Origin: Macrostomum lignano | Lineage: Eukaryota | Assembly: GCA_002269645.1 (NCBI GenBank) | Contig: NIVC01004108.1 | Location: 1 to 60,361 of the forward strand | Reading direction: 5' to 3' | DNA length: 60,361 nt | In this document: positions 1 to 20,126 of the stretch, in pieces | Position numbering within the stretch: the first letter of the stretch is position 1 | Layout of the letters: every line of letters begins with the position of its first letter | The notes under the pieces: generated by a model | Database searches by the model: none | Seen by the model: the letters and a program-made list of their open reading frames with translations, nothing else | Told to the model about the DNA's origin: nothing | Translations under genes and position numbers: made by a program

Positions 1-330
1 TGTCCTTTTTCAAAATGATACAATTTATACATATGAGGATGTAAAATTCTTTTCCTTCGTCAACACACAATCTTTCGCTTTTTTCTCCAAGACTTCTAAA
101 AGCAGCAGCAACATCCTCTCCTTTTTTGGATTTTAAAGGAACAGCCCACGCGTATCGGTAAAACCATCTAATATGGTTAAGATATATTATATCCTCTTTC
201 GTTCGGCATCGACATTAAATCAGCATACCAAATTTCATTCTTTTTGAAGTTCATGATTTTTCTATAAAATTTAGGTTTTCGATATTCTTTATGAAGAATC
301 TTTGCCTCATCAGAACTTAACCACCACTTA
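1..330 (-). CDS. Retroviral-like (rve, DDE) integrase of Polinton type, N-terminal part, frameshifted, runs off the window
   Basis: Manual minus-strand translation across 1-nt frameshifts: AKILHKEYRKPKFYRK..EIWYADLMSM..GY..ILTILDGFTRYAWAVPLKSKKGEDVAAAF..LCVDEGKEFY; first two catalytic Asp (WxADL, xDxGKEF) visible. Confidence 0.9.
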
Positions 331-1130
331 AAGTAAAACACTCACACAATTATTTCCATGTTGATTATAATTAATTCCCAAACCAAATTTAACTTTAGAC
401 TGCAAGATCTTTTTAACCATCCACTAGTTAATTTTGACCTACCGATAATCCCTGCAAGTTATCTAATCCTTGAATCATTTTTTTGATCGGCTTCATGTTT
501 TAATCTTAATGCTTCCTCGGCGTGGTTCTTGTCAGCATCTCTATATGCTAAGTCGTGATAGTATGCTAACCAATCAATCCCATTTATTGGAATTGAATCA
601 GATTTTGGGTGTCATCAGGATTTAATCTCAAATCTAAGCGAGTGCCGGGTAGTTTACCCTCAATCTTTCGAAAGAGGCTGGAGCACACCTTAAGCGGCGA
701 TAATTACCGCCCATCTCCGTCTGCTCTCTGAACCTTCTCCTTATATTTAAAATACTTAGGAGCTTGGCTGCGCATTGCCACCGTGTCTTCAAGCTTTTTA
801 CCTTTGGGAAGAGGAGTTACCTCTGTTCCTTCAAAAGATTTCTCAATTGAAGTGGTACTTGAAGCTGTATGACGGGTTTCACGCAATTTGGAGATGTCGC
901 CACAAATAGTGACTAGCAAGGACATTGCCTTCCTCACTCAGGCCACGGGTTAACCTGTGAAGTTCATTGATGGTAGGTGTAGTTCCCTGTATATTTACCA
1001 GTAGTAAAGATTGGTGGTAAGCTTGTTAATCCTTTTTGAACATCTAAAATCCTCCTTCAAATACTATTTGATCGTTCGAAGGAACGCGAACTTCGTTCGG
1101 TTGCTCATTTTTAATAGCCTTAAAATACAT
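328..1130 (-). CDS. PLA2X: parvovirus VP1u-like phospholipase A2 domain protein, split by a group I intron (650-952) and with 1-nt frameshifts
   Basis: Manual reconstruction: MYFKAIK..FEGGF/LDVQKGLTSLPP..G/ELHLPSMNFTG | PGTRLDLRLNPDDT/PKSDSIPINGIDWLAYYHDLAYRDAD..KHEADQKMI..KVKFGLG; matches the parvoviral PLA2 GPG Ca-binding loop and HDxxY catalytic motif. Confidence 0.85.
650..952 (-). ncRNA. Group I self-splicing intron, IC1-like, 303 nt, no internal homing endonuclease
   Basis: P/Q/R/S core: AAATTGCGTGAAA (889-877), AATGCGCAGC (776-767), GTTCAGAGAGCAGA (733-720), AAGGTGTGCTCC (691-680). P3 CATCTCC/GGAGATG; P7 G(A)GAGCA/TGCTCC; P1 exon CAGGT/IGS GCCTG with U.G at the splice site; P5abc with GAAA loop and A-rich bulge; P6a CTCCT/AGGAG; P8 GGCGGT/ATCGCC; P9 GAAA loop. 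Removal restores the reading frame. Confidence 0.9.
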
Positions 1131-1645
1131 GAAAGCACCAATTGTTTTGCAAATTCTTCAATTGTTGGTTGTTTAACTTTTTTATAGTTATTATCTACGC
1201 TAGTTAAGTATCTTTTATTTCTCCAATTTTCAGACTTTTTAATCTGATCATCGTCTTTGTAATTAAATGAAGAAGCGGGAATGAAATGATCAATATCTAA
1301 CTTTCCAGTATAATTTTTTGGAACATAATAATTTCTTGTGAAATTTAACCAATCAAAAAAGAATTCTTTTGTGCAACCAAGATAGGAGATATAATGTTTG
1401 TCATGAAAATTCTCAATGCCAATTATTTTAGCTCTAATTAGACTAATATTTTTGAATTTTCATCAGTGCGATATTTATTTTTGCATATTTATTACATTTA
1501 TCTTTATTGTTTATTCTCCACATAGTACATTTAACTTTCTCACAAGATCGACAAAGATTTTAAATTTTTTTGTGTCATTTCTCCAACAAAAAAATTCTTT
1601 AGTCATCGGTTTCTCAATTTACACGTAGTACAAATTTTGTTTCAT
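1064..1645 (-). CDS. Free-standing HNH (EndoVII-like) endonuclease with N-terminal CxxC..CxxC zinc finger, frameshifted
   Basis: Manual translation across frameshifts: KICTTCK..EFFCWRNDTKKF..CRSCEK...SYLGCTKEFFFDWLNFTRNYYVPKNYTGKLDIDHFIPASSFNYKDDDQIKKSENWRNKRYLTSVDNNYKK; resembles the large-DNA-virus LGC..E..W / HIDHIIP.SSF / N...L...DN..K family. Confidence 0.75.
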
Positions 1646-1669
1646 TTTTATAAAAAATAAATTTAACAA

Positions 1670-2338
1670 TTAATTAAAAACTACTAGTATGTCCAGCAGC
1701 TTTCGCAGCAGCTAAAACAAGTTTTCGCGGTGTTTTAAATCCTTCTCCAACAGCTGGTTTGTTATTTATAGAATTAACAATCCTTTTATACAAGCTGGTA
1801 TTTTTAAAGCTCTCCTAACTCATCATAAAAAATTCTAGCACTTACTTAATTCATCCCTAGTATATAAATCAGGGTTAAACTTTACCCTAGGGTTCATAAC
1901 AATATTATATGCTCCGCCCAATTCTCTATATAGTTCATTTCGATTTTTATCAACTCCACCAATTCGATAATTATTATTACCTAAATCTGTCGCAGCAATA
2001 CTAGCTGGTACTCTTGGATATTGTTCCCATCCCCCCGCTCTGCACGTCTAATCTCTGCAATCTCAATTGTGCTTGATCAACATCATAAGCAGGCGGCTCA
2101 TCCAAAATTTCATCCTCTTTTGGCTCCGTATTTTTAGCAATTTTTTCCAGAAGATCTTTATCTGTTTTTTCTAGTTCACTAATTTTCCCAGTAATAGGAT
2201 TAACAAAAGGAGCAGCAAATCTTTCACCGCTAATTGTATTCCTAACTTTCTTTTTTGTAAATTTCTAACAAAATCAGAATATCTTTGCTTCTCTTTATAA
2301 ATCGCTAACTCTCCATCAACGTCCATAAATTGACTCAT
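1670..2338 (-). CDS. Hypothetical Polinton protein, frameshifted
   Basis: AAAAAATG start at 2338; broken reading frames with Polinton-like segments (MSQFMDVDGELAIYKEKQ.., YTRDELSK.., KLVLAAAKAAGHT). Boundaries approximate. Confidence 0.45.
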
Positions 2339-2372
2339 TTTTTAACATAAAAAACTTTTTTAACTTAAAAAA

Positions 2373-3838
2373 ATGGCTGAAACAAAAACTATGTGGAGTG
2401 ATAAATTTCATTTCAAAAAGCACCGACAGTATATTAATGAGGTCAGAGCAAAGATTTAAATTATACCCTACCAACAAGTGATAATTCAAATAACTTTACT
2501 ACTGGAACGGTAACTTTTGACATCGGCGCAACCAACACTATATTGGATATGAAAAATGCGTTTTTCCGCGTTAGATGGTTGTATACTAGAAATGATGGAA
2601 CTGCTCTTGCAGCCGGAGATATCGCAGATCGATCCGGAATAATAATAGAAAATGATTGGTTTTATAAATGTTTTTCCCAAGCTCAACTAACTGTTAATGG
2701 TGCTGAGGTTGAGACATCATCAAACCCCGCAGAGATTAATGGAGTTTTGAAACATTTAAATTATACTTATTTATCAAAACAAGTTGGTGATAATGTTGGG
2801 TGGATGCCGGATAAAGGTAACGGCAAGCAGTAGTTTTCCCTAATGTACAAAACGCAGCCGGTGCAGATACTGCAGCGCTAATTGTTTACCTTAATACAAA
2901 CATAGTTCCAGTTGTAACCACTATGACTAATACAAAAGATATTAATACTGGTTTTATAGATCGTCAGAATAAATTCCCAGTCGCGGTTTTAACCACAGCA
3001 ACAGCATATGAGCAGGACTTTTCAATCTTTCCACTATTTGGGTTTTTCTCACCAAATCGGGTATGGAAAGGATTAAAATTTGGGATACAGTTGCAAATAT
3101 CTGGTGGATATCAGCCTAGGATACTTTATGGAACCTCAATTTCAACCGATATAGCAGTTCGTATAGATTCAATTCAATTAGTCGTACCAACTATTGAGGT
3201 AACAGCCCCACTTTTAAAACACATCGATAATCAGTTAACGCATGATCAGGAAATATTTTATTTGAATCGTCGACATTTTATGCGAACCATTAATAATAAC
3301 CAGGATTCATTCCAGTGGCAAATACTGACATCAAAACGTCGGGTGAGATATATTTTTGTTTGGTTTAAGATAACAAATAGAAGGAGTAAAAGAGCAAATG
3401 GGGATTTATATTGGCTTCAATCGGTGCATAGCAGCACAAGCAGCTACCGCAACAGACAACGCGTTGCTGCAATTAACGAGTTTAATGTTCAGAATATCCG
3501 CCTGCAGGTTGATGATCAATATTATCCGGTTAAAGACCCCTAATTTAAATATAGCAAATAATAATGTTAATGATTTTATAAAATATTATCAAGATTATGC
3601 CAAAAATGAAGCGTATGCCGTCCCTCAGTACACACCCACAGAGTTTCTAAACATTCATCCAGTGGTTGTTTATGATCTAACGGCACAGAAAGAAAACGTA
3701 GCCAATATTGGACTTAATTATATGTTAGAGATTAATAAAACCGGTAATCAGGCACTTGACGCCCACGTATTGTTTCTAGAGGAATATATGTCAATTGCTA
3801 AAGCTGATGGCACGATTGTTCGGGACGCACCATTGTAA
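2373..3838 (+). CDS. Major capsid protein (double jelly-roll), broken by several 1-nt frameshifts
   Basis: ATG at 2373 plus ORFs 2543-2833, 2923-3543 and 3398-3838 join into ~480 aa; motifs FSQAQLTVNGAEVE, RRVRYIFVWF, NIRLQVDDQYYP, VVVYDLTAQKE are Polinton MCP-like; adjacent to ATPase and penton. Confidence 0.8.
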
Positions 3839-3889
3839 AATGAGTGCAGGTCTCCGACCGTCGCGCCTATTTAAATTATTTCTTTAAAA

Positions 3890-4715
3890 ATGGTAAAGGC
3901 AAAACACAATAAATATTTCCAAATGATCCTTTTCTTTGTTTAGTAATCGGAGGATCAGGTAAAGGAAAAACACACTTTGTTTACGATTTATTAACAACAG
4001 ATGGAATGTTAGACTATAATAATTTAATAATTTATACTAATAAACCTAGAATAAAATATTATGAATTTCTTAAACATGGATTAAAAAACAAATTAAAAAA
4101 AGATGTCTTGTTTAGAATGTTAAGAGCATATGAGCAATATGAGGATGATGACGAACCGCGATTTAATCTAGCAGACATTGAGGATTTATGTAAAACAATG
4201 GCACAACAGCCAGAAAACATCACGATCGCCCCGAAGGGTCGCGACTTCGTCGATCGAGCCCCAACTGTTAGAGTATCAACCCGATTAGCCTATGATCAAA
4301 TTCCAAAACATGATAAAACACTAATTATTTTTGATGATTGTATTAATGACGGTGATCAAGAATTGCAAAAGGAAATTTTTGTTAGTGGTAGAGGAGATGG
4401 AATTGGAGCTTTTTATCTTACTCAATCCTTTAGAGAATTAGAATCGATTATAAAAAGAATGCTAGCTGTTGTGTAATGTTTGATTTAGATAACTATGATC
4501 TACAAAATATTCACGCTAGATTTAATCCCGGATTGGATGCAAAACCATTTAAAAGTATGTGTAAAAAAATTTGGGATGATAGCCAATACAAACATATTTA
4601 TATCAATCCGAGGTTAGAAAGGAAACATAGAATTTTAACAAATTTGATAAAAGAAGACGATGAGGAAGAAGAGGATCGTAGCACGCGACCTCGTACGATT
4701 AATTTCCCACTATAA
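3890..4715 (+). CDS. Genome packaging ATPase (FtsK/A32-like), frameshifted
   Basis: Walker A IGGSGKGKT (~3946-3972), Walker B LIIFDD, FYLTQSF motif; joins ORFs 4006-4476 and 4476-4715. Confidence 0.9.
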
Positions 4716-4717
4716 AA

Positions 4718-5568
4718 ATGACTACAAATTTAGATACTATAAAACAATTGGTAGATCGAACTAATTCAAAATTTAGTACAACATTACAGTTTATAATGAC
4801 AACCAGCGAGCAACGGATTCAATTGCGCGATCCATTACAACTTGATCAAAGCCTAAGTTATCAAATAGGTTTAATTCTATTTTCGGTTTTCAACATGCCT
4901 CAATTAATTAATGCAACAAATAATCAATTTAGATATTCTAAAGATTCCGGAGCCAATTGGACAACATTTAGCGTTAACCCAGGAGCGTATAGCTATACTG
5001 ATTTGAATGCTTATATAGAAGGAGAATTAACAACTAATGGTGATTGGGTAGCAGGAGCAATTGTTATAGGTGTTGATTTACCGTCTGGCAGATTCACACT
5101 ATCACTAGGATCCGGATATCAGGTTGATTTCACAATTGCAAATTCACTCAGAACCATACTTGGATTTAATTCCCGAATAGTTACCACATCAAGCACCGGT
5201 GATACAGTGGGAAATATTGAGGGGGAGTAATACAATTAATATAACAACCGACATATCAAACGGCGTTATATAACAGATAATAATGGAGTTTTGGTTCAAC
5301 GTGGAATTATTTATTCAATCCCATTTCTTGCTGTTCCAATTGGAGAGAAAATGATTGTTGCACCCAAACCCCAATATATTATCCTTTAAATCAATATAGC
5401 GTTCAATCAATTTATATTAGGATTGTAGATGAAAGCGATAGATTAATAAGTTTTGGTGGGCAGTCAATAACAATAATTTTACGTATAAAACAGGTTTATC
5501 GTAACGCGTGCTCACGATCGAACGAAGGTTCGCGGACTTTGTCCGTTTCCTATAGTAAAAATGGGTAA
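4718..5568 (+). CDS. Minor capsid (penton-like, single jelly-roll) protein, frameshifted
   Basis: LRDPLQLDQSLSYQIGL..FSVFNMP..INATNNQFRY N-terminus; continues after frameshifts with VNTINITTDI..GIIYSIP..IYIRIVDESDRLISFGGQSITIILRIK, typical of Polinton penton C-termini. Confidence 0.8.
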
Positions 5569-5767
5569 TCGAACAACATGTTCGCGTGCAAAGCACGATA
5601 ATAATAATTTAATAAAAAAACAATCAGAAAAAGTTAAAAAAGCTGAAGATAATTACGAACTAGAACTAGCAAAATTAAGGCAGTTACAAGCTGATAAAAT
5701 AAGAAAGGAATTGTTAAAACCCACACCTACGAAACTAACTAAAACCAAGAGTTTTTCAGGAACATAA
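5561..5767 (+). CDS. Small basic coiled-coil hypothetical protein
   Basis: 68-aa ORF with AAAAATG start, packed between penton and protease. Confidence 0.4.
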   Translation: MGNRTTCSRAKHDNNNLIKKQSEKVKKAEDNYELELAKLRQLQADKIRKELLKPTPTKLTKTKSFSGT

Positions 5768-5768
5768 A

Positions 5769-6166
5769 ATGACCATGACGTGGGATGATTTTAAACAAAG
5801 ATATGGAACAGACACAACAAGCAATATCGAATTAACAAATTGGGCGAGGCAGTTAAAAATAAAACCATTCAGATGTGTTATGCGGGATGAGATAAAAGAC
5901 TTACCAAGATATGGATCTTTCATTGTTAATATTGAAACAACAAAAGAAAATGGTGTTCATTGGTCAGCAGTTTATTCAAAACCAAAACTTGTTTATTTTT
6001 TTGATTCATACGCGCTTCCTCCGTTACAGGAAATAAAAGACAAATTTAATCATACTAAAAATCGTTTATGTGGAGATCATCACGAACAGTTTCAAACTTT
6101 GATAAAAGTTATTGCGGCAAGCGGCGTTGTATTTTTTATATCGACTTTCGAATGAAGCTCGTGTAA
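5769..6166 (+). CDS. Adenain-like cysteine protease (virion maturation), one frameshift near 6100
   Basis: IVNIET..NGVHWSAV (His), YFFDSYA (Asp), and in the shifted frame QFQT/DKSYCG (Gln, Cys). Confidence 0.88.
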
Positions 6167-6213
6167 ACCCCGAAGTATTTAGATTTTAGACTCTATAAAA
6201 TAGACAGTAAAAA

Positions 6214-8190
6214 ATGTTATTTTCTGGAACACCCTCATGGAACGGAACATCAAGTACTGGTGGTGGTACTTCTGGTGGAATAAGTGTTACATTCGGAGAT
6301 AACCGATATATTAATGAAGATGAAGGTTATAAAAAAAGTGAAGTTGATACTAAACTAAATTTAAAAAGAAATGTTGCAGATTCCTATACCAAAACTCAAA
6401 TAGATAATTCCCTAAATTTAAAACGGAACGTAGCCGATTCATATACAAAAACAGAGGTTGACAATGGGTTAAATTTAAAAAGAGATATAACTGATTCTTA
6501 TTCTCGAACTCAAATAGATGATTCATTAAATTTAAAACGCAATACGGCCGATTCTTATACCAAAACTGAAGTTGATAATTCCCTAAATTTAAAAAGAGAT
6601 ATAACTGATTCCTATACCAAAACTGAAGTTGATAATTCCCTAAATTTAAAAAGAGATATAACTGATTCCTATACCAAAACCGAAGTTGATAATTCCCTAA
6701 ATTTAAAAAGAGATATAACTGATTCTTATAGCAAAACTGAAGTTGATAATTCCTTAAATTTAAAAAGAGATATAACTGATTCCTATACCAAAACGGAGGT
6801 TGATAATTTAGTTGGAGGTGGAGCCTTAAAGCAGGATCGATTCCAAACGGTTGAAACTGGTCACATACCTACCATGGCAGATTGGAGTGGAAATGGTTTT
6901 GCAATAACCGCAAGCACTGCATTTAATACAACTGATTTTGCAAGTTGGAAAGCGTTTGATGGTAATGATTCAACAGATTGGGCAACAAATAATACTCAAA
7001 CCGATTATTGGATTCAGGTTCAATGCCCTTCCGCAATAATGTGTTATAAAATTGATTTACGTGGTAGGCCATCACCTTCAACCGAGCATCCAGCATCATG
7101 GCGATTTGAGGGAAGTAATGACAATACAAGTTGGGACGTATTAATACCTGTGGATAGTTCTGTAGCAATAAATAACTCAACTCAAACAATTAATGTCACA
7201 CAAAATTTTGATAAAACATATTCATATTTCAGATTGTTCTGTCTTACATCAACCTCGGGTTCAACCAACCCGGGTCTGTCAACCTTCCAGATTTATAGAC
7301 AGACGTTTACAATTCTTGATTTAAATTTGGGAGTGGTTAATCAATCAATTGATATGGGAGGTAATACAATTACTAATATCTCTACTATAAACAATAACAG
7401 TTCTGTTGTTACTAAAGGTTATGTTGATACGCGAGTAACACAAACGGCGGATGGCCGAATGTCTTTTAACGATAAAATAAAATTGGATGGAATACCTGCA
7501 ATCGATGCCGCTTTGTACGAGCCTGTAATTTGCAATTGGACTGGATATCAAAACCCAACCACCGCCGGCGATATTTTTCCAACAGGAAGTTTTGTTGGAG
7601 ATGCTTCTTATATAGATTATCAAAATGGTGCTAGAATTACTGATGAAGCATCGGGTCGGTCTGGAGCGTTGCAATTTAATTTCACCCATTTTCGTAATAT
7701 CTCCGCCTCCTTCTATTTCCGAGTTGCTAATGCTACAGGAAGTGGTGCTGATGCGGTTTGGTTTTATGCATATTGTCACGAACGTCCAACAAGTGAATTT
7801 GGATCCGGGTTAACAACCCGCGCCGGCTTGATTGTGTTTGCGAGTGAATGGCATGATAGAGTTGGGGTTGTTTGGAGCAATATAAAATCAGACGGTGCAA
7901 CAGCTCGTAATGATGTTCTTAATGACGCAGATCAAACTATAACCTATGCTAATATTGATAACGGCGATTGGCATCTTTTTGAAATTAATATTTTAAATCA
8001 AAGAGTTTGGTATCAAATAAGCACATACAATGTATCAGCTAATACATATACGCTAATTGGTCAAAACTTTTTTACATATGATAGTGGAACTTGGGGAGAT
8101 TTAGATAAAACGGGAACTCTTATGGGTTTTGGTGCTCGAACTGGAGGAGCAGATGCCGCACATTTTATTCGTGGCAGCCGTTTGTGGTAG
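6214..8190 (+). CDS. Fiber/receptor-binding-like protein: 19-aa repeat shaft, F5/8-C (discoidin)-like domain, neck motif, L-type lectin-like head
   Basis: Intact 658-aa ORF; repeats YTKTEVDNSLNLKRDITDS; ASTAF..WKAFDG..W....YWIQV..P.SWRFEGSND (discoidin-like); IDMGGNTITN..VVTKGYVD (fiber neck-like); GDASY..A.IT..SG.SGA..F..GSGAD..WF (legume lectin-like). Confidence 0.7.
   Translation: MLFSGTPSWNGTSSTGGGTSGGISVTFGDNRYINEDEGYKKSEVDTKLNLKRNVADSYTKTQIDNSLNLKRNVADSYTKTEVDNGLNLKRDITDSYSRTQIDDSLNLKRNTADSYTKTEVDNSLNLKRDITDSYTKTEVDNSLNLKRDITDSYTKTEVDNSLNLKRDITDSYSKTEVDNSLNLKRDITDSYTKTEVDNLVGGGALKQDRFQTVETGHIPTMADWSGNGFAITASTAFNTTDFASWKAFDGNDSTDWATNNTQTDYWIQVQCPSAIMCYKIDLRGRPSPSTEHPASWRFEGSNDNTSWDVLIPVDSSVAINNSTQTINVTQNFDKTYSYFRLFCLTSTSGSTNPGLSTFQIYRQTFTILDLNLGVVNQSIDMGGNTITNISTINNNSSVVTKGYVDTRVTQTADGRMSFNDKIKLDGIPAIDAALYEPVICNWTGYQNPTTAGDIFPTGSFVGDASYIDYQNGARITDEASGRSGALQFNFTHFRNISASFYFRVANATGSGADAVWFYAYCHERPTSEFGSGLTTRAGLIVFASEWHDRVGVVWSNIKSDGATARNDVLNDADQTITYANIDNGDWHLFEINILNQRVWYQISTYNVSANTYTLIGQNFFTYDSGTWGDLDKTGTLMGFGARTGGADAAHFIRGSRLW
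6328..6810 (+). repeat. 57-bp coding tandem repeat (8 full units plus a partial) in the fiber shaft
   Basis: Directly visible in DNA and protein. Confidence 0.95.
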
Positions 8191-8272
8191 CACATCAGCA
8201 GGATATGATTTTGCTGCGACCGCATATTTGGAACGGCCACAAACCGAAATAACTTAAATATTTATATATAAA

Positions 8273-8599
8273 ATGGCTTTTAGTAGAACTCCATCGATGC
8301 GGCAAAATAATGTTATTATTCCTATTCCTAAACAAGAATCAAATATAAAAACATTCAAATCTCATACCAAATTTTTATTTAGTACTGTAAATGTTCAGGA
8401 TAATAAGAAGCTTCAAGAATTAATTAAGTTATTAAAAAATCATATTATACTTCAAGAGTTTTGGAAAATAGGATTTAAATGGGAGAAAAAAGAAAGAATA
8501 ACTCCAATACAATACCTATTGAGCTCGGGACAAATCCCCAAAGAGCGCGGGGAATTCATTTTGGTGCTATTAAAAATAGACGAGAATGTCGGTATCTGA
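8273..8599 (+). CDS. Hypothetical protein
   Basis: 108-aa ORF, TATATAAAATG start. Confidence 0.55.
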   Translation: MAFSRTPSMRQNNVIIPIPKQESNIKTFKSHTKFLFSTVNVQDNKKLQELIKLLKNHIILQEFWKIGFKWEKKERITPIQYLLSSGQIPKERGEFILVLLKIDENVGI

Positions 8600-9242
8600 A
8601 GCAGATAAATGGGAACGCGACCGGTTCAACCAACGTAAAGGCCAGATGTTGAGTAATGTTGATCGAATAAATTATGATTATGATTTATATGCTAAAAAAG
8701 TAAGAAGAGTTTCAAACCATATAAGAAATATGGACTTTTTCAATATTGGATTTGGAAGCTTATCAATGTTATGTGTAATCGTTTTAGGTATTTTACAATC
8801 TATTCCAACTCTTAATTTATCTCAATTATTTTTAGGTATTTCAATTGGCTCAATATCAGGTTTTGAATTGATCAGGAACTTATCAATACTTTTAGCAATT
8901 AAATTATATCTTAAAAAAAGAAAGGAAAAATATAAATCTTTAAGAGATGTTGCAAAACAATATAAAAATCAATTATATTTATATGTGCAAAAAATATTGG
9001 ATGACGGAGAGATAACGATTCATGAATTATCAACCGCGGTTGAATTATATGAAAAATATTTAAAAGATAGAAATAGAATTTTAGATGTTGAAACTTTTAC
9101 CGATATGGAATTAAAAGAGTTGAGACTCGATAAACCCAAAGCTCCACCTATAGAAACATTAGGCATTTACGAACCTGAAACTATTGCTACTGGGGCACAA
9201 AGCCCGCGGTCAGGAAGTGCGGTAGAACTTCAGGTTGTTTAA
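8586..9242 (+). CDS. Putative membrane protein (hydrophobic hairpin followed by helical KILDDGEITIHE segment)
   Basis: 218-aa ORF with hydrophobic IGFGSLSMLCVIVLGIL..LFLGISIGSISGFELI; resembles a conserved Polinton accessory family (from recall). Confidence 0.6.
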   Translation: MSVSEADKWERDRFNQRKGQMLSNVDRINYDYDLYAKKVRRVSNHIRNMDFFNIGFGSLSMLCVIVLGILQSIPTLNLSQLFLGISIGSISGFELIRNLSILLAIKLYLKKRKEKYKSLRDVAKQYKNQLYLYVQKILDDGEITIHELSTAVELYEKYLKDRNRILDVETFTDMELKELRLDKPKAPPIETLGIYEPETIATGAQSPRSGSAVELQVV

Positions 9243-9722
9243 TTTATTTAATGCATATGTTATATATTCTTCCCAAAGTGGTAACTCTCTTCTGATTCTA
9301 GGTTTAAATTTTTTATCAATACATAAAAATTCCAATGACTTTTTCAGTAACATTTCGTTAGGTATGTTACCTATCCTTATAAACTTTGTATTCTCTCGAA
9401 TAAGAAAATTGAAATAATATCCAACTAAAATTAAAATCCTTTCAGAGTCTTTCGAACTTAATCCCTTTCCTTTATTTAAATGGAAAAAGTTATTATATAA
9501 ATAAACATTATTTCCGGGAATTAAAATTGGATCAGAAATGTCTCTTGTAAGATTTCTTAAAATTGTATTTTTAAAATAGTAATATGAGTTTTCAATCTTT
9601 TTTGTTTTTTCAAATTGATATATTTTAGAACATGAATAACACATATGATATATATCTCCGTTTGCTGTTTGCCCTCTGTGCATAGTCACATTACATTTAT
9701 TACAAACATAAATGTCTTTCAT
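9210..9722 (-). CDS. Hypothetical protein with N-terminal CxxC..CxxC zinc ribbon
   Basis: 170-aa ORF: CNKC..CYSC; A-rich ATG context. Confidence 0.55.
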   Translation of the reverse strand: MKDIYVCNKCNVTMHRGQTANGDIYHMCYSCSKIYQFEKTKKIENSYYYFKNTILRNLTRDISDPILIPGNNVYLYNNFFHLNKGKGLSSKDSERILILVGYYFNFLIRENTKFIRIGNIPNEMLLKKSLEFLCIDKKFKPRIRRELPLWEEYITYALNKLNNLKFYRTS

Positions 9723-9749
9723 TTTTTTTGTTATTTTTTTAGATTAAAA

Positions 9750-10121
9750 ATGGAGAGCTGGTTCAAAACCGATTCTAATGTGATTAATTATCTCACACCC
9801 AATATGTTGGAGAATAAAGAATATAATATTATATGTTTGAGACAGGTTAAATTTATTGGGCTTCAATCAATATTTTTACAATTAGATGGGCAAAAAATTT
9901 TATGTCTAAGCGGAGATGATGTTAAAAATTTTCCTGTTTTAGTTATTAATAAACCTAAAGCGTTTGTTATGAAATACTGCAACGAGGGTGGATTGCAATT
10001 TAAACTAAAACAAACAAATAATAAAAAGAGTGATAGGACTGTAAAATTGGCGGCTGTTTGGGAGGATGACCCGAATAAATTTTTTAAGTTTAAATTTTTT
10101 ATAAGAAAATGGATACGATAA
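9750..10121 (+). CDS. Hypothetical protein
   Basis: AAAAATG at 9750 within ORF 9645-10121. Confidence 0.5.
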   Translation: MESWFKTDSNVINYLTPNMLENKEYNIICLRQVKFIGLQSIFLQLDGQKILCLSGDDVKNFPVLVINKPKAFVMKYCNEGGLQFKLKQTNNKKSDRTVKLAAVWEDDPNKFFKFKFFIRKWIR

Positions 10122-10468
10122 AAATCCTTATCACTAAAGAGCGTGAACTTAATGATATTAATAAAAAAATAAATATAATTATATCTCAGAAATATCATGA
10201 GTATGGGGACGATATGTTTCCCATCCGATATGAGATAGATAAAAGAAAACGTTTTTTAAGACAAGATATTGTTTATGCTGAAATAGTAATTGAAATTGAA
10301 ATAGATAGATTGGTTAGAAAAATAAAAAAACTTAGGAAAAAAATAAAGGATTGTTTAAGTTACCCTGCCGACTGTGAGGATAATTGGTGCTCAATAATAT
10401 ATATATATGAAATTGAAGTTAATGATTTGCTTAAACAATTACATGCTTTAGTTTTTTTCAAGTGCTAA
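10109..10468 (+). CDS. Hypothetical coiled-coil protein
   Basis: 119-aa ORF overlapping both neighbours. Confidence 0.45.
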   Translation: MDTIKILITKERELNDINKKINIIISQKYHEYGDDMFPIRYEIDKRKRFLRQDIVYAEIVIEIEIDRLVRKIKKLRKKIKDCLSYPADCEDNWCSIIYIYEIEVNDLLKQLHALVFFKC

Positions 10469-13400
10469 TTCATCAATATCGAACTCAAAACAATTATAGT
10501 CAACGTCAAATAGTAAACTGTTATAATATTCAATTGATGTTCATGCTGTGGTTTGTCATCAAAATAGTTTTTAAAGAATGGTTTCATAACTCCGTTTTTA
10601 TCCGGTTTTTCTCTTTTAAATGTGTTTATCGTAGAGGTATATGTTTTTGATATTGTTGATCCGCTTTGAGGAATTGTTATACCACCTTCAAATGATCGTT
10701 TCCACGGAGCATTATTATTTACTTTTATTGACTGTCCATCATATAAAGTTTTAAACGATGCAAAATTAATCTTATCGTTTGCACATCCTTTAAATGTTTT
10801 TTTCTCTTCCATAATAAAATCGTCTTTCAATAAAAGACAATATTTAATTTTAGGAGCGATAAAATAACCGAATATAATTCCACCCTCTCCATAATCATTT
10901 TTTCCTTGACTTAAGTTATTTCCAACGTGCCCGTTTTTATTTAATGTGTCCCAATGTTTTTTATGTATATATAACGAATCTGTATCGCCGTAATAAATTT
11001 CTGGAGTCTTTGAGCCCTCTATAGAGGTAATAAAATTATTCATGATCCTTCTTGAATGAGCTAAGATAAATATTCCTAATTGTGCTGGACAAAGGCTTGT
11101 TATAGGCTTTCCTCTTCCTCATCTACATATTCTTGCGTGTCTTTATTTTTTTCAACATAATATAAATCGTCACATATTTTCTCATATGATTTGATTGTGT
11201 CATCGTATTCGGTTTTTAATGTTTGCAAATTCCAGAGATGTGTTGTGAAAGTAATGTCTCTTTGAACTGTTTTGCCATATAATGAATTTAATAGTGTTTT
11301 TACCAATTCAGAACCTGCCTCGTTATTTTCTTTTTTAAATACTTTTCTCATTTCAAAAAGATTTGTAATATAATTCTGAAACGGAGAGAAATCGTAATTT
11401 TTTTCATATACAATTCCACTATATATCTTTAATATTTTTCCACCCATTCTTACAATTTCTTGTATATCTACGGAACATAAGGTGTCAATTACTTTTCCGT
11501 TTCTAAACCTATTTAATGTTTTTGTTTCGTTTGCTTTTGTTTCCGGATTATAAAATTTCTCTTTATCTTTCGATGGGAGATGTTGAAGAAAAACGGTGTT
11601 AGGATTCTCATACATAATCTTTAAAACCGCTGTTTTTGGTCGAAAGGTTTGTGAATTAAATTGTGCCAAGAAATCTTTTTCCTCGCTTATATCAAAAACT
11701 CTTGCTGTTTCTGCTCTTGGATATTCACTATCCTTATCAGACATGGCAGATGGGTACAACGAAACTCCATCAAAATTCATTAAACAATCTGATACGGTAC
11801 CCAATTGCTTTTTTAGTTTAATTGCGATTTTCTTTTTTTCTTCCATATCGCTTTTGATATAAGATGATATAACCTCGCATGGGTCGCTTGTTGGTGTTTT
11901 TAAATGGGCTTTTACAACGTCTACAATTGTTTGAAAACAGTCGCTTTCATATTTATTTATTAGTGCAAATACCCTGCCTCCTTTGACTGCGTCCCGCATA
12001 AACCTTCGTATATAAGGATTGGTATGAGAGTGAACTGAAAATTCTTTTCTTAATAGTGTTTGGTATTTTGCTTTTTCAAGTTTGCTTAAGTCAAAATAAT
12101 CCTCTATTTTCAACGGAGATATTATTTCTTCAACTTTTTTAATGTAATTAGTTTTTTCTTCTGTCTTTAGATATTGTTTCATTTTGTCTTCAACTCTAAC
12201 AAAATCTTTAAACCAACATTTTAATGTTAAACTTGAACAGGTAAGAGTATCGAACATTGTCATTCCTCCAATTTCATATGCTATTTCATTATACTTATGA
12301 ATACAGGCGCATAAAGAAATAAGATCAAATTGTAAATATTCATACCATTCGTCCATGCGCTCTAAATAGTCGTGTTCGGTAATGTCGTGAACCATTGAGG
12401 TCTTTCGCAAATCCTCTCTAATTGTCATTGATGAGCAAAACTTTTTTAAACTCATTGATGCATGTTGATATGAACAAAGCATCGTAATGGTTTGTTTCGA
12501 ATCCTTATGATTCTTCTTCTTATCTTTGTTTATAAATGCGCTAACCTCTTTTGACGCGTAATCGTTTACAAAAGTTATTGATAATATTCCTCTTGGGGTT
12601 TTGAGAATTTTAATTGGTTTTATATTACAAAATAGTGGTATGTATGAATCGAAGCGGGATGAGTTATGCGCGATCAAAACAATCTTTTTTGACCTAACTG
12701 TACCAAGGTATTTAAACATTTTTCTAACACAATCAACCTTTGGTTGCGAACCTTCGGCACGGTCAACCTTATCTCCATCTGTTTGAAAATCACAACCGCG
12801 ATCTGATATCAAGATCTTAGTTAGTTTCTTTATTTGCTCTGGGGTTTCATTACACTTATTAGAAAAGTCGTTATAGTTTAAAAGACCAACCGCATACGGA
12901 CATGCTTGTTGATTATAATTTAAATATGTTTCAAAATCAAATATATATACGTTTGATTTATTGGGATTTGTGGGTGTGTTGAACATTTTTAGCTCCTTAA
13001 CATTTTCGAGCGTTGGGTTTTTATATACAACTTTATAATTGTCTTTTATCCGTTCGAGGGCGATTCCTCGTTGTTTATTTGATATAAGACAATAATGACC
13101 AATGTGATAATCGGGTGTGTGAAAGTAATTTATTAATAACCAATCGTGGTGAATCCCTCTTTGAGACTTTGGTTCAATGCCACGATTTTTGGTGTTGTAC
13201 AGCCCTATACTAAGATTAAAATGTTCGTTGAATCTTCCAATTCTTGAATTTGTCATTAAACCTCTTTGAGTTCTTGAGTCGTACAACCAAGCACCATATT
13301 CGTCTTTGCGTGGGGCTTTATCACCATAAATAAACTGAACACACTTATAGAAACAATTTCCATCACTAGGTATGTAACAGTACTCATCTTTATACTCTGC

Positions 13401-14066
13401 AATTTCACACATGACATTTGTTCCCATACCCTGCTTTGACCTTTCGTGTTTAAGTGTAATTTCGTTTGGTGTCATTTTAAGTCTTCCAGAAAACACACTT
13501 AAATTCATGTCGTAATTTTCTACCAAATGCTTAAACCAAGCTTGAAATTGACTTATATTATAAAATGTTGCTAAGTATTGATTAATCTCTTCACGATCAT
13601 CTCCGGTTTTATTATAAAAATATTGTACCCTCGCATTAGTAATTTCAACAGCATATCCGTTTGATAGCTGGGTTTCAATAAAATCTAAGACATTCTGCAT
13701 TGGTTCAAATCGATAAACCCTAATAAACTCATCTAATGGTTTTTCATCCGATTTATTCCGAGGTTTCCGACGTGTGGGTTTCTTTTGGTTTTTTTCTAAT
13801 TCTGCTATTCTTTTTTCATATTCAGCCTTTTCTATTAATCGCTTCATTTCATATTCTGCCCTTATATTATTTGCTAATGCATTTATTTGTTGGTCTTGTA
13901 TTTCTCTTTCTCTCTGCCTTTCTCTCTGTCTTTCTCTTGCTCTTTGGCGGCGTTGTTGTCTTTGGCGCTGTTCAATTTGTTCAATCTGTCTTTGTAATCG
14001 ATTGAACTGTTGGCGCTCATTTGCAAGAAGTTGTCGAATCTGATCTGGGGTCAATCTTTGTTCCAT
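10465..14066 (-). CDS. pPolB: Protein-primed family B DNA polymerase with N-terminal OTU-like/terminal-protein region; one frameshift near 11090
   Basis: ExoI YIFDFET, ExoII AHNSSRFD, ExoIII YLQFDLISL, PolA NFDGVSLYPSAM, PolB KTLLNSLYGK, PolC YYGDTDS; ORFs 11100-14066 and 10465-11043 are bridged by KPCPAQLGIFILAHSRRIM in the second frame. Confidence 0.97.
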
Positions 14067-14150
14067 TTTATAGAATATAATTTATATAATGTTTGAATTA
14101 TTGATTTTTTAATTTTGCGTTTTTGGTGTCCAGACCCTACCCCCAGGAGC

Positions 14151-15146
14151 CTATTCGAGATCTGCTTTTGGTAATAGCAATCCATTGCCCATAACGTTTG
14201 AATTTAAGAAAATTCCTGAACCTGCTTTTGGTCTCATTTCGAGATATAATCCGCTTCCATCATGTTTTTCAATGATGTTAAAATCTTTTCCTAATTTAGT
14301 AAAAATCTTCTGAACTGCTGGTCTAAAATTGGATCCAATATTGTCAAAAAATCCTTTAGCTTTCTCACCCGTTTTTTCTAAAGTTTGGCCAAATTCATGT
14401 AGTTTATCTGCGACAACTCCACTTCCTTGGGTTGTTCCTTGTAAAAGTAAACCATTGCCATGATTTGATCCTTTTAGTATTAACCCTTTTCCAGCTGATA
14501 ACCTAGCTTCTGCATTTCTTTTTTGCTCAGCTGTTGCTGAACTACTATTAATTGTATCGATAAGTTTTTGTTTAAATTGTGCGTCCTGCGTTATTTGCTG
14601 TCTTTGAAATTCTGCATCTCGTTTGGCTTTTTCGTCCGCAGCTTTTTTGTCATTTACTGCTTTTGCAATTCCAGCTGCTCCGCCAGCAACTCCTCCAGCT
14701 GCTCCAATTCCTGCAAAAATTATTGGGAGCAAAGCTGCAAGGGGTAAGATTCCCCCCTGTTTCGCTCTTAACTCTCCTAGCTGTTTTACATTATCATGAA
14801 TTCTTTTTCCGGCTAAACCGACTGCTCCAGCTGCGCCAAGCCCTAAAAGAAGCGGTAGAATGGGTAGTAATCCACCGTCCTTTTTAGTGTGAGTCTCCAT
14901 TAAAAATTTCACATCAGAGTCTGTCAACCTATAATTTCTGCCGCGATTCTTAAAGGATATTGGCCTTCCTTCTTGTGCATATTTTGCTGCGAGTTTAAAT
15001 GTATCGATGTCGTAGTCAAACTTTTTACCTAATCGATCCAATCTTTTTAACATTGTGTGGGTTTGCTTATTATCATCAAGATCTAAAGTATCTACAATTT
15101 CTCCTATAAAATATAACCGGTTTTCATCATCATTAACTGAGCCCAT
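14151..15146 (-). CDS. Putative core/membrane-lytic precursor protein (Gly/Ala-rich hydrophobic segments after GG motifs)
   Basis: 331-aa ORF with DGG-LLPILPLLLGLGAAG, QGG-ILPLAALLPIIFAGIGAAGG and repeated GxGLxL motifs. Confidence 0.55.
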   Translation of the reverse strand: MGSVNDDENRLYFIGEIVDTLDLDDNKQTHTMLKRLDRLGKKFDYDIDTFKLAAKYAQEGRPISFKNRGRNYRLTDSDVKFLMETHTKKDGGLLPILPLLLGLGAAGAVGLAGKRIHDNVKQLGELRAKQGGILPLAALLPIIFAGIGAAGGVAGGAAGIAKAVNDKKAADEKAKRDAEFQRQQITQDAQFKQKLIDTINSSSATAEQKRNAEARLSAGKGLILKGSNHGNGLLLQGTTQGSGVVADKLHEFGQTLEKTGEKAKGFFDNIGSNFRPAVQKIFTKLGKDFNIIEKHDGSGLYLEMRPKAGSGIFLNSNVMGNGLLLPKADLE

Positions 15147-15156
15147 TTTTATATTG

Positions 15157-15567
15157 TTAAAATTTCTTTAATCCTTTTCCACCTTTAATAGTATTTAACA
15201 TTTTATTAAAATCCTGAATATCTTTATTACTTATTGGTGCGCTTTTCGTGGGGGTTTCTGTTGGTTGTGCGGCTTGGGTTGCTTCCTGTGCTAATTTCAA
15301 ATCTTTTATTGCTTTTATCTGTGAGAGGGTATCGTTAAATTCTCTCAATTTCTTTAGTTCTTCTGCCGCTCTAGCTGCTTCAATTCCTCCTTTTACAGCA
15401 TTTGTTATAGAACCTGCTGCGGAGCCAGCTTGCCCTATAAGCCCCATATTGTCTTTAACAAAATTTGCTGCTGTTCCAACCACATCAAAAAGCCCCTCAC
15501 CTCGGTATTCAACTGGGTCTCCTACCTGCAATTCATTCAGATTTTGCATATGTGTAACGTGTGTCAT
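15157..15567 (-). CDS. Putative core protein
   Basis: 136-aa ORF, GEGLFD..GSAAGSITNAVKGG, C-terminal IKGGKGLKKF; co-directional with 14151-15146. Confidence 0.5.
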   Translation of the reverse strand: MTHVTHMQNLNELQVGDPVEYRGEGLFDVVGTAANFVKDNMGLIGQAGSAAGSITNAVKGGIEAARAAEELKKLREFNDTLSQIKAIKDLKLAQEATQAAQPTETPTKSAPISNKDIQDFNKMLNTIKGGKGLKKF

Positions 15568-15821
15568 TTTTTGTTCTATTTTTAGTAACAGAAAAAGATT
15601 GTCTGCATTCCATTTAGACCAGATTTTAGACCAAATTTTTGAAAACGAAAACCAAAACGATAGTCTAGTTTTGTTTGGTCTAAAATCTGGTCTAAATGGA
15701 ATGTTGGGTGGGTAGGTGAACTGACTATAAATAGCTTCTATTCTTTCCGACCCTTAGCGCCTGCGGCGCGTGCGACGGGTTCTAGAAAGTTTGTGTGTGT
15801 TGGAGAGAGTTGGAAGCGTTG

Positions 15822-16069
15822 ACGATACAAAATACCCAGCAAACCAAAGCGAACGACGAGAGCGTGTTCTCACCATTCAAAAAGAATTAATCGTTGTAAG
15901 TGTGAAATGGCCTGTTTGACCGAAATGAAGCGAGGATGAGCGAAGCGAGTTGAGCGAAGTGAAGACGAGCGAAAATGAAGGGAAACAGGCCATTTCACAC
16001 TGATAAAGGGTTAAATTGTTTGCAATGGTGAGAATGGTTTGCTGGGTATTTTGTATCGTATATACTACT
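15822..16069. repeat. Polinton right terminus with nested internal inverted repeats
   Basis: 25-bp perfect IR 15822-15846/16035-16059; 11-bp IR TTCTCACCATT/AATGGTGAGAA; 19-bp IR 15899-15917/15983-16001; terminal ACTACT. Confidence 0.85.
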
Positions 16070-18296
16070 ATACTGCCAAACCTAAAACTGAAAGATTTTA
16101 TTACTGAATATTTATACAGATATTATTTTAAATATTTATAGGATTTAACATGGGAGATTATAAAGTGGCAAAAAAATATATACTCAATAATAATACTAAT
16201 AGCAAACTATTATTAATAAACATCTACTCCTAGACCTAGCTAGACAAGCTAATAAAGATAACTTTTTATGCCTAATACTTATCTAGTACTTATCTAGTTA
16301 TACAACTTATTTTAAGAACTTTTAAAGCCAATGTTTGACAATATAATAAACAAAAAATAATTTTGCACTAGTTTTATGATTTTTGACATGAAAATCTCTA
16401 TTAATATATTAATTAGAAAGTAATCTAATTATAATCTAATAATTTATATTATCTAATGATAAATAAGCTCTAATATTCAAATAATCAAATAAATTATTAT
16501 AACTTTATAAATATACAACTACTAGCCAACCTAGCTTATCTAACCAATATAAATTTAAAAACCAAGAATAAGTTGTGAAACAGATGACCAAAAAAGTAAA
16601 AAGACAAGAAAGAAAAGAAATGCAAAGGAAAAAGAAAAATTAGCAATAGGAAATCAAAAAAAGCAAAATATAACAAGAACTTAAAAAAGCAAAAAGATAA
16701 AAAATAAAGGAATCTGTAAAAGAAAAGGATCAGACTAAGTCACATTTTCAATAAAAATAACAAAGTCGCATGCCAGTTTAATTTACAGATTGCGCACACA
16801 ACATGTACTTCTTTGCAGTGGTCCATTTATATTTGATGAATCTGAATGCAATGCATTATTATTATTTTTTTAAAAGCAAAAAATTAGGTAAACGGTGGAA
16901 ATAGATTGAAGAATACAGCACAGTGGGACCACTATAGCATATCACACTGTCTGTAACAACAATGGCAACAAAAGGCTTTTCTGGTTTCATTTTCACTGAA
17001 AAATGAAGTAAAATCTTTTATTCTAATATTCTTATAGGCCCAAGTAGAAATATCTACAGTCTCTACAGTTTCTTTTATAAATGAGTATGAAAGAATTCAT
17101 TCCAAAAATCAAGATAAATTTATGAGATAATTGTGCTTTCACTCTTAGTCTTAGGCCTAGCCTAGTCATACTACGAGCGCTCGTATTTCAAGCATCGTGG
17201 GGCGGACGGAAGTCCAACACAGGGCGTTTTCGTGGATTTACCCCAATTTAAATTTAAGTCGAAAAGACAGAGAAAAACAACACGAACAAACTCTTAGTCA
17301 GTTTTACAGCATAACGAATCAATACACGTTGTATATTTTTACTATCTAAACTACGTGGGTTAGTGATAATAAAAACCTAATTTTTGTTTATTATAGATCC
17401 TACGATAATTAGCATAACGCACTATTTAAAATTTTCATGAATTTGTCAAAGTATCCGTTCATTCGATATATTAAAGGCATTGAATAGATTGACTAGTTCC
17501 ATCAATTATGCAAATGTGAACTGTTAGATAGTACAACTATGGTGCGTTTTCTGCTTCTATTTTGTACTTTTACGGCGCAAATATTTGTTTCGGCTTCTCG
17601 GTAAGCATAAGCATACCTAATCCATGTTTTTAACTGTATCAAATCTCAGCCAGAGATAAATGTAAATTTTTATCAAAATACGCAGATTCACTTCAATGCA
17701 ACTCGTTCGAGCTCAATATGTACCATTGTAATGTAAATTACGTTTTAAACCTATAGGCTAAAAGTTTAACTGTATAAATGTCTAATTTTTTACAGTCGCA
17801 TATCATGCATGAAAAAGCACTTTAAGTACAGCTTGTAAATTTTATCATCATAACACCAGGCTTTCAAAACAATTTACCTAATTATTACATTTAATTAAGC
17901 TGCACGTTAATGAACTATGTCCATCTGAATTATAAATTATAAATTTAATAATTCTTTTGAGCTTTGGAATTGTTTGCGTAGCTTTTGGAAAAAAATAAAT
18001 AACTGATCATATATGTACATTTCTAAGAACTTTAAAAGCGGTTGAAAACACTAACTTTATAGCATGTATTTTTACAAACTGCTATGATGAGTGTTTCCAA
18101 CCGCTTTTAAAGTTTAAAGTTCGACTATAGTTTAAAGTTTAAAGTTTAAAGTTTAAGTTTAAAGCTCGACTATAGTCGAGCTTCTTTTCTTAGTCAGTAA
18201 TAATTGCAAACTATTTCTAATAATAAGTACTGGTTTATTGGTCTTACACCAGCGTACTTTCGATCAACCGTGCATTCTCTTCCAAAAATATTTCAG

Positions 18297-20126
18297 ATTT
18301 GAAACTAATCTGTTAGCCGAAGCTACAACAACAGCAAACGCACCACCATTTGAGACTATCTACTCACCAAAATCCGCAACACCAACAACCTCAACACTTA
18401 AAAATACAACACCAACAATCAAAACTACAACCACAAAACCTACAACATCAACATCGACAACAAAAGCTACAACAACCCTAACAACAACTACAAACACGCT
18501 AACAACCACAGCAGTACCAACAGCCAAAACCACAACCACATTAACAACCAAAACACCAAAAACTAAAACACCAGCAATCAGAACCACCCCGCCAACAACC
18601 ACAACACCAACAACCACAACACCAACAACCACAACACCAACAACCACAACACCAACAACCACAACACCAACAACCACAACACCAACAACCACAACACCAA
18701 CAACCACAACACCAACAACCACAACACCAACAACCACAACACCAACAACCACAACACCAACAACCAAAACACCACCAACCACAACACCAACAACTAAAAC
18801 ACCAGCAATCACAACCACAACCATACCAACAAACACAACACCAACAACCACAACACCAAAAACCACAACACCAAAAACAACAACACCAACAACCACAACA
18901 CCAACAACCACAACACCAACAACCAAAACACCACCAACCACAACACCAACAACTAAAACACCAGCAATCACAACCACAACCATACCAACAAACACAACAC
19001 AAACAACCACAACTCCAAAAACCACAACAATAACGACTAAAACACCAGCAATCACAACCACAATCACACCAAGAAGCACAACACCAACAAGCACAACTCC
19101 AACATCAACCTCAACAACAACCACAGCCGCAGTCACACCAACAACCACAACACCAATAACTACAACACCAATAACCACAACGCCAACAACTAAAATACCA
19201 ACAATCACAACCACCACCACCCCAAAAACTACAACCACAATACGAACAACAAAAACAACACCAACAAAAAACATAACACCAACAACTACAACATCAAGAA
19301 TCAAAACACTAACAAACACAACCACAACCACCCCAACAACCACAATAACAACAAAAACCAGAATACCAGCAACCACAACACCAAACACCACAAAACGAAC
19401 AAGCAGGGCTCTTAAAGCCACAGCAACACAAACACAAACACCAACAACAACCACAACACCAACAACCACAACACCAACAACTACAACTACAACACCAACA
19501 CCAACAACTACAACATCAAGAATCAAAACACCAACAAACACAACCACAACCACAACCACCCCAACAACCACAATAACAACAAAAACCAGAATACCAGCAA
19601 CCACAACACCAAACACCACAAAACGAACAAGCAGGGCTCTAAAAACCACAGCAACACCAACACAAACACCAAAAACAACCACAACACCAACAACCACAAC
19701 ACCAACAACTACAACTACAACACCAACACCAACAACTACAACATCAAGAATCAAAACACCAACAAACACAACCACAACCACAACCACCCAACAACCACAA
19801 TAACAACAAAAACCATAATACCAGCAACCACAACACCAAACACCACAAAACGAACAAGCAGGGCTCTAAAAACCACAGCAACACCAACAACGATAACACC
19901 AACAACCACAACACCGACAAAAACATTAACAACCACAACGCCAAGAGCCATAAAACCAGAAACTACAGCACGACCTACCAAAGCACAAGCGGCCATGACA
20001 ACAAGCGGCATATCAGCCTCAATTCAGCCGATGATATCACAACAGTCAACAATGTCAACAGCAAAACCAACCAGAAGATCAGTTCAATCAGTCGCTACCG
20101 AGCGTCTTAAACAAGATTATTCTGCG
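18297..20126 (+). CDS. Thr/Pro-rich mucin-like exon (one frameshift near 19800)
   Basis: ORF 18238-19803 of PTTT repeats; AG acceptor TTTCAG ending 18296 and donor GTAAGT at 20127; triplet periodicity kept over 1.8 kb. Confidence 0.6.

Follow-up and report, generated by a model that had tools for sequence, protein, structure and literature searches.

The position directly upstream of the PLA2-integrase gene in Macrostomum lignano Polintons is probably a homing-nuclease slot, as judged from sequence comparison. It is occupied either by a free-standing HNH endonuclease gene or by an unrelated Eco47II-like gene, and the adjoining PLA2-integrase gene is interrupted by a group I intron devoid of any ORF. 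We analysed a window of 60,361 nucleotides, that is, the whole stretch of contig NIVC01004108.1, and searched the 764-Mb assembly for further copies. Since this search yielded 128 HNH matches at about 110 loci (the full-length ones from about 57% to 100% identical) and more than 130 close PLA2 loci, the HNH-intron arrangement is no artefact. It is real and unusual, and the idea that it serves homing is plausible, with the HNH gene as one of two alternates and its target predicted.

The element (1-16069, no strand assigned) encodes PolB, an A32-like ATPase and an integrase; the window holds its AT-rich right part, the left end being truncated by the contig start. The two genes that define a Polinton/Maverick are both present, namely a protein-primed PolB (11100-14066, minus strand; PF03175, E 3e-16) and an rve integrase (PF00665, E 9e-8, measured in an open copy of the gene). 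The A32 ATPase match within the Polinton part of the window is weak, and a weak pX match sits in a separate ORF (14151-15146). Capsid-like and protease-like ORFs were labelled presumptively after the known Polinton layout, with no database match behind them, and ACTACT at 16064-16069 is, on the same layout, presumably the Polinton end motif. EGF, fibrinogen-C and LINE domains are encoded by the ORFs that flank the Polinton, which fits an animal host. Among them, a LINE (40840-45962) whose domains are endonuclease, RT and RNase H lies between two fibrinogen-C ORFs (38351-39058 and 50539-51246) that match Pfam almost identically. The upstream boundary of the nuclease slot is a conserved gene of unknown function (1683-2341, minus strand; about 224 aa), broken in the window copy.

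The interrupted gene is a PLA2-integrase fusion on the minus strand. Exon 1 (954-1108) ends with the codons FTG and overlaps the 3' end of the nuclease gene, and exon 2 (1-650), which encodes 382 aa where the copy is open, holds the remaining PLA2-like domain and the rve integrase; both exons are broken in the window copy and exon 2 is further truncated by the contig start. The insertion splits the codons FTG|PGT, the uninterrupted PLA2 Ca-loop site being FxG|PGT. The gene had been labelled PLA2X in the sequence-only reading, a name that has to be abandoned: the PLA2 domain continues into the rve integrase, with no C-terminal pX-like domain, and the accessible part of the source defines the PLA2X of adintoviruses as PLA2 plus pX (PMC8502044). 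The dN/dS of exon 2 is 0.05. Between PLA2 and integrase lie the motifs LSGG/G and IYGK/G (exon 2 of locus L002, codons ~107-112, with a sister-family equivalent), which we take to resemble adenain cleavage sites; this suggests that the product is a polyprotein cleaved by the element's own protease. A variable hairpin-like insert, whose length differs between copies, is found in the overlap of nuclease and PLA2 (~1075-1110 and equivalents), and in a few copies the HNH frame continues into exon 1.

The intron (651-953, minus strand) is 303 nt long and of IC1 type with P5abc, hereafter type A. As had been proposed, it leaves no space for an endonuclease, being too short for a nuclease ORF. RF00028 matched it with 62.2 bits (gathering score 50, E 1.4e-15) when positions 600-1000 were scanned, and did not detect it in a scan of the longer stretch 1-2500. 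P1 is formed by 958-954/944-940, P7 by 727-723/686-682 and P9.0 by 680-679/653-652. P4, P5a-c, P7 and P9.0 are retained across 71 distinct intron copies: all 71 have the U.G pair of P1 at the 5' splice site, P7 is paired in 70-71 of them at each position, P4 is essentially invariant and P2 shows compensatory swaps between A-U and G-C in about 21 (P6 and outer P9 were left out of these counts). The MFE z-score is weak (-1.8). A spliceosomal intron was rejected by inspection, as the adjacent GT and AG would break the reading frame. Contigs of four runs of guessed type contained no joint skipping 651-953, and one contig spans the intron unspliced, a result that weighs neither for nor against splicing. 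The segment 651-953 is a structurally conserved group I intron, with splicing predicted. At one locus (L159) the intron has undergone a tandem-repeat expansion.

A terminal G is a near-universal rule for group I ribozymes. This terminal omega-G was not found here: the window intron closes with an A (651), as do 70 of 97 type-A copies, the other 27 ending in G. The A-ending introns keep an unchanged G-binding site with the same P7, span 19 flanking haplotypes and coexist with G-ending sisters. Neither ending is confined to one nuclease: the Eco47II-like gene accompanies 19 introns ending in A and 5 ending in G, and is absent beside 51 A and 22 G introns. A terminal G was present in the 8 complete nuclease-bearing sister-family introns that were read. 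The possibility that the A-ending intron is dead is disfavoured, exon 2 having a dN/dS of 0.051 with A-ending against 0.061 with G-ending introns, a comparison in which recombination could mask decay. Together, the A-ending introns and their G-ending sisters constitute a natural paired test of the rule. The terminal G is likewise absent from the hexacoral mitochondrial intron ND5-717, which, according to the available part of the report, ligates its exons precisely with low efficiency and is mostly found unspliced; that intron is mitochondrial, obligatory and vertically inherited, whereas A and G forms of the Polinton intron occur in one population (PMC6545197).

The same 5' site also receives a second, IE-like group I intron, intron B (1867-2200 of locus L034, and 17 further fetched loci). 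It scores 42.9 bits against RF00028, under the gathering score, and has P2 and P5abc sequence in common with type A, making the introns chimeric. Its 3' splice site is ambiguous, as alternative ends gain or lose codons. One copy (L058) contains an unrelated insertion of about 830 nt, and at three loci (L175-L177) a decayed IE-like intron and remnants of PLA2 exon 2 lie in a repeated non-Polinton context.

The HNH gene (1064-1645, minus strand) is free-standing and encodes a zinc ribbon and an HNH (bba-Me) domain, about 190-200 aa in open copies. It begins with an ATG at 1645 and extends across the PLA2 start codon (1108), its final frame closing at 1064, which leaves 110 nt to the 5' splice site; these coordinates bear out the earlier description of a same-strand zinc-finger and HNH gene overlapping the PLA2 start and ending about 110 nt from the splice site. 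This distance is 106 nt in 50 of 59 open copies. The window copy is broken: its frame shifts or meets stops at several places (around 1620, 1560 and 1450, and at the 3' end), and the HNH core (1181-1291; Asp-His, Asn, Asn and Lys, corresponding to D123, H124, N147, N156 and K159 in open copies) is in frame. Among 90 fetched copies, 62 are full-length and open and 28 are broken or partial. The four cysteines, D123, N147, N156 and K159 are present in 62/62 open copies and H124 in 61/62, so that catalytic and zinc residues are nearly invariant although open copies diverge by up to about 40%. The dN/dS is 0.43-0.53 (51 distinct copies), compared with 0.05 for PLA2 exon 2, a value compatible with relaxation and diversification alike. 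These data point to a selected HNH-type nuclease whose activity is predicted.

The fold was checked by structure prediction, and motif and model agree on an HNH (bba) fold. The model reached a pLDDT of 92.7 when built from 80 sequences and 42 from a single sequence. Compared with viral structures it gave 39 matches at E<=0.001, many of them named HNH, with mimivirus L246 among the best and a BsV intron encoded endonuclease (A0A2H4UUB1, E 2.9e-10) as second-best; its matches in the PDB are HNH folds as well, although weak (Z up to 5.5). Searches of the protein against Pfam gave no match and against PDB sequences no significant match. Its family comprises 3671 matches at E<=0.001. In nucleases of the endonuclease VII type, zinc-binding cysteine pairs flank the catalytic core. 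The suggested likeness to this type did not hold, CxxC pairs being confined to the N-terminal ribbon (residues 7-37) with none around D123-N156; PHROG 1035, 'endonuclease VII', matches the protein at E 3e-8 and 1e-3, and no Pfam EndoVII match was obtained. The Polinton nuclease belongs to an HNH/bba-Me giant-virus family without the EndoVII core cysteines. A word-index search found no HNH homologue, scans of viral contigs that started from alignment A2, P0007 or the sister PLA2 gene were equally negative, and a metagenome scan returned 5 distant loci, with no intron motifs in the 4 examined.

To see whether intron and HNH gene co-occur, PLA2 loci were classified by coordinates (150 of 508 and 150 of 792 candidates were scored). 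In 134 close PLA2 loci, the HNH gene lies at intron distance in 91, at 119 nt, corresponding to no intron, in 3, and across a longer intron in 1, and 39 have no HNH gene nearby. A table of 127 loci was then compiled, for which every exception and most other loci were fetched; L068, L069 and L178 (rearranged, with no PLA2 gene downstream of HNH) and L070-L072 (incomplete) were excluded, and the HNH class counts truncated remnants such as that of L139. HNH plus intron was found at 85 loci (74 type A, 11 type B), Eco47II-like plus intron at 37 (30 A, 7 B) and HNH without intron at 3; 2 loci are rearranged. With 124 of the 127 family-1 loci carrying it, the intron is close to fixed, and none of the 127 lacks both nuclease and intron. 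Because HNH and Eco47II-like genes alternate across these loci, the nuclease position is a swappable slot. At L139 the slot is filled by a non-nuclease gene plus the HNH tail remnant.

The co-occurrence of intron and HNH gene expected from the sequence-only reading gave a mixed picture: 85 of 88 HNH loci carry the intron, and 39 of 124 introns have no HNH gene, 37 of these holding the other nuclease in the slot. The refutation named in that reading, an HNH gene independent of the intron, applies in part, as HNH lacks the intron at 3 of 88 loci, in two of which (L061, L062) it is open-framed beside an uninterrupted site. HNH and intron identities are uncorrelated (rho 0.05; 1081 pairs, 47 loci), 30 of 87 near-identical HNH pairs have introns less than 96% alike, and the flanks of HNH- and Eco47II-like-bearing alleles are undifferentiated (Fst -0.005 to 0.044), with no fixed difference between slot types within 240 nt upstream or in exon 1. 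Given this rho and these flanks, nuclease, intron and flank modules recombine freely.

The three intron-less HNH alleles all differ near the site from intron-bearing haplotypes: L061 has C at -1 and differs at 2 of the last 24 bases of exon 1, and L062 and L063 show several, mostly synonymous, differences. Either these sites would resist cutting or the HNH nuclease would cut elsewhere, and they represent natural resistant-looking alleles. Target escape might show itself in a diversity peak at the insertion site. Variability is indeed highest in codons -6 to -4 (piN 0.34, piS 0.64), but this sign was rejected as unspecific, with piS at 0.5-0.6 in other exon-1 windows.

The alternate slot gene, unrelated to HNH, weakly matches RE_Eco47II (E 0.0024; Atlas 0.94). 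A sister Polinton family, whose PLA2 is about 60% identical, is polymorphic for an intron at the same site, and there an Eco47II-like gene lies close by in 23 of 25 split genes and in 0 of 20 unsplit ones, a tally of non-independent copies that leaves out partial sister-family matches (query start 63-82). At nine loci (L077, L146-L153) an Eco47II-like PD-(D/E)xK ORF resides inside intron loop L2.1 and runs into the core; public homologues of this nuclease run into the intron core in 4/4 cases (for P0165-P0168, and for the HNH homologue cluster P0007, the intron location was read from protein tails alone). In the sister family, exon 1 ends in ACT GGC at the 11 intron-less sites read and in GCA GGT at intron-bearing ones, a difference consistent with resistance or co-conversion. 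Judged by these associations, the nuclease best tied to the exact PLA2 site is the Eco47II-like one and not HNH, and the PD-(D/E)xK protein is a candidate for a new type of intron homing endonuclease; a titles-level literature search found no paper linking Eco47II-like proteins with intron homing. At L179 (C1063) and on C1064, a Polinton copy breaks off within the Eco47II-like gene, beyond which lie several RING-finger-like ORFs.

Relatives of the HNH protein are also found inside introns. In the P0007 cluster of HNH homologues, the protein tail is 61% identical over 46 aa to the Polinton intron core read as protein. In an IMG/VR giant-virus capsid gene (L143), an HNH of the same family (33% over 124 aa) lies inside a group I intron which adjoins an ORF-less intron resembling that of the Polinton; the giant-virus capsid genes L141-L145 hold related IC1-like introns. 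The presence of an HNH homologue embedded in a close relative of the Polinton intron indicates that the HNH family associates with this intron lineage. The closest relative of the Polinton HNH is neither P0007 nor L143 but P0002, which has no intron-core tail, and no HNH gene inside an intron at the PLA2 site itself was seen among the loci examined. The early part of the L143 capsid gene contains three group I introns, one ORF-less, one with HNH and one with a further ORF that, from its motif, we take to be GIY-YIG-like.

Our preferred reading, held at slightly less than an even chance, is that slot nucleases break intron-less PLA2 alleles and that repair spreads the intron from outside, as in collaborative (trans) homing. 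Co-resident or co-infecting Polintons would meet in one nucleus, where HNH would cut or nick the uninterrupted Ca-loop site near the insertion point; repair off an intron-bearing copy would transfer the intron, often with the nearby gene, and the intron would shield its own allele from the nuclease. The partnership would be loose, with nuclease, intron type and flanks reshuffled by recombination. That HNH itself cuts the intron-less PLA2 site is about evenly balanced. The pairing that characterises collaborative homing, an ORF-less intron with an adjacent free-standing nuclease, was found, and a homing slot is favoured by the conserved intron, the intact catalytic residues and the two interchangeable nucleases, both of which have intron-encoded relatives. 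It is further favoured by the near-fixation of the intron in family 1 and by the tie between Eco47II-like gene and intron in the sister family. The three intron-less HNH alleles differ near the site as resistant alleles would. Collaborative homing, as proposed in the sequence-only reading, is supported in part, as regards an HNH-type nuclease with intron-encoded relatives and the want of any family-1 locus lacking both partners; it does not stand as regards HNH as a fixed partner, given the 3 intron-less loci, the 37 with another nuclease and the rho of 0.05. Against collaborative homing also speak the open HNH frames of L061 and L062, the undifferentiated flanks, an HNH dN/dS that fits relaxation no less than diversification, the size of the HNH family, the 4 metagenome loci with no intron motifs and the failure to see any HNH gene within an intron at the PLA2 site among the loci examined.

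A reading that ranks close behind is that the free-standing HNH gene homes for itself, by intronless homing of the kind known from T4 seg, mob and hef: it would cut somewhere nearby regardless of the intron and compete for the slot, while the Eco47II-like nuclease, at first encoded in the intron, spread the intron and later moved out to the slot. This is a real possibility, albeit one we consider less probable than collaborative homing. HNH occurs without the intron at 3 loci and is not co-inherited with it, the Eco47II-like gene is the one found inside the intron at the PLA2 site, and a tree nests its free-standing copies among intron-encoded ones (midpoint root, for drawing only); T4-like phages, in the part of the source available, likewise swap nuclease classes in one slot (PMC2988022). 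Arguing the other way, neither exon 1 nor the 240 nt upstream shows a fixed flank difference that would point to another target, and a close relative of the Polinton intron has an HNH homologue inside it.

An improbable alternative is that the slot nuclease serves the element and takes no part in intron mobility; it might interfere with rival Polintons or giant viruses, damage host DNA, or act in replication or packaging. Nearly all family-1 elements retain a slot nuclease, the alternate gene resembles Eco47II restriction enzymes, and nucleases are common in such viruses, for which the accessible texts propose defence or restriction roles (10.64898/2026.10.13.758929; PMC12220804). However, intron-less sister-family elements have no such nuclease near the PLA2 gene, the slot of L139 holds a non-nuclease gene, and no methyltransferase motif was found in window positions 1-18500, the left end of the element lying beyond the contig. 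It is very improbable that HNH is a decaying passenger of an earlier homing cycle whose adjacency is historical, in spite of its dN/dS near 0.5, the 28/90 broken or partial copies and the rarity of homing targets that follows from the near-fixation of the intron, as catalytic and zinc residues are nearly invariant despite divergence of up to about 40% and many of the breaks would be small indels typical of long-read assembly.

A wider picture, which we regard as speculative and on balance unlikely, is that a live homing ecosystem of Polintons inhabits one animal nuclear genome. In it, the Eco47II-like protein would be an undescribed intron-encoded homing endonuclease that moved to the slot in one family, where a giant-virus-type HNH with this PLA2 site as its common target rivals it; two group I introns would compete for that site, and the commonest would splice with a terminal A, throttling PLA2-integrase. 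Since intron-less, free-standing and intron-encoded states exist in one genome, the proposed way in which mobile introns arise, and the opposite path, are directly testable. Homing would also imply frequent recombination among Polinton copies, which bears on whether Polintons behave as viruses.

What appears to be new here is a group I intron beside a swappable nuclease slot in an animal Polinton. In the literature surveyed, as far as its accessible text goes, collaborative homing is shown only in phages and group I introns in Polinton-like elements are protist cases only; no report was found there of an animal Polinton carrying a group I intron (the PMC12220804 tables may include such cases) or of an intron-plus-nuclease-slot arrangement. 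The portions available already describe HNH domains within nematode PolB and put forward collaborative homing as a hypothesis for PLV genes (further basis in the same partial form: 10.1101/2023.08.22.554363, PMC12768974, PMC3679873, 10.1101/2023.10.06.561300). The arrangement nevertheless has recognisable counterparts among known systems.

Collaborative homing of F-CphI and psbA was reportedly described by Zeng, Bonocora and Shub in 2009 and by Bonocora and Shub in 2009. F-CphI is a nuclease of the EndoVII class. In that phage system, F-CphI acts with the S-PM2 psbA intron, according to the accessible parts of the sources (PMC3984707; PMC2988022; PMC11296320). As in the Polinton, a group I intron with no ORF, in a conserved motif, adjoins a free-standing nuclease gene, and the end state predicted there, with the nuclease inside the intron, exists in Polinton relatives; the Polinton case differs in being eukaryotic and nuclear, in its other HNH family, in its reassorting nucleases and intron types, and in that cleavage is predicted. 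Bodo saltans virus carries group I introns with HNH and GIY-YIG genes, and trans-homing is proposed for its ORF-less 'offspring' introns in the text available (PMC5871332). Its intron-encoded endonuclease structurally matches the Polinton HNH, and IC1-like introns occur in giant-virus capsid genes; there, however, the nuclease lies inside the parent intron of a cytoplasmic giant virus (same source, in part), whereas the Polinton has a free-standing nuclease in an integrated element present in more than 100 copies. Among protists, the Polinton-like viruses of Rhodomonas, Paulinella and Desmodesmus also have ORF-less group I introns, about 300-380 nt long, in PLV genes; the part of the report at hand restricts them to a few protist groups and to a short gene without annotation, and describes no nuclease partner (PMC12220804), whereas here the host is an animal, the gene a PLA2-integrase and the nucleases both embedded and free. 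Finally, the free-standing seg, mob and hef genes of T4, unrelated nucleases that replace each other in one intergenic slot adjoining the target gene, share this arrangement with the swappable Polinton genes, the difference being that the phage system, as described in the available text, has mapped cut sites whereas the Polinton slot is known from sequence (PMC2988022).
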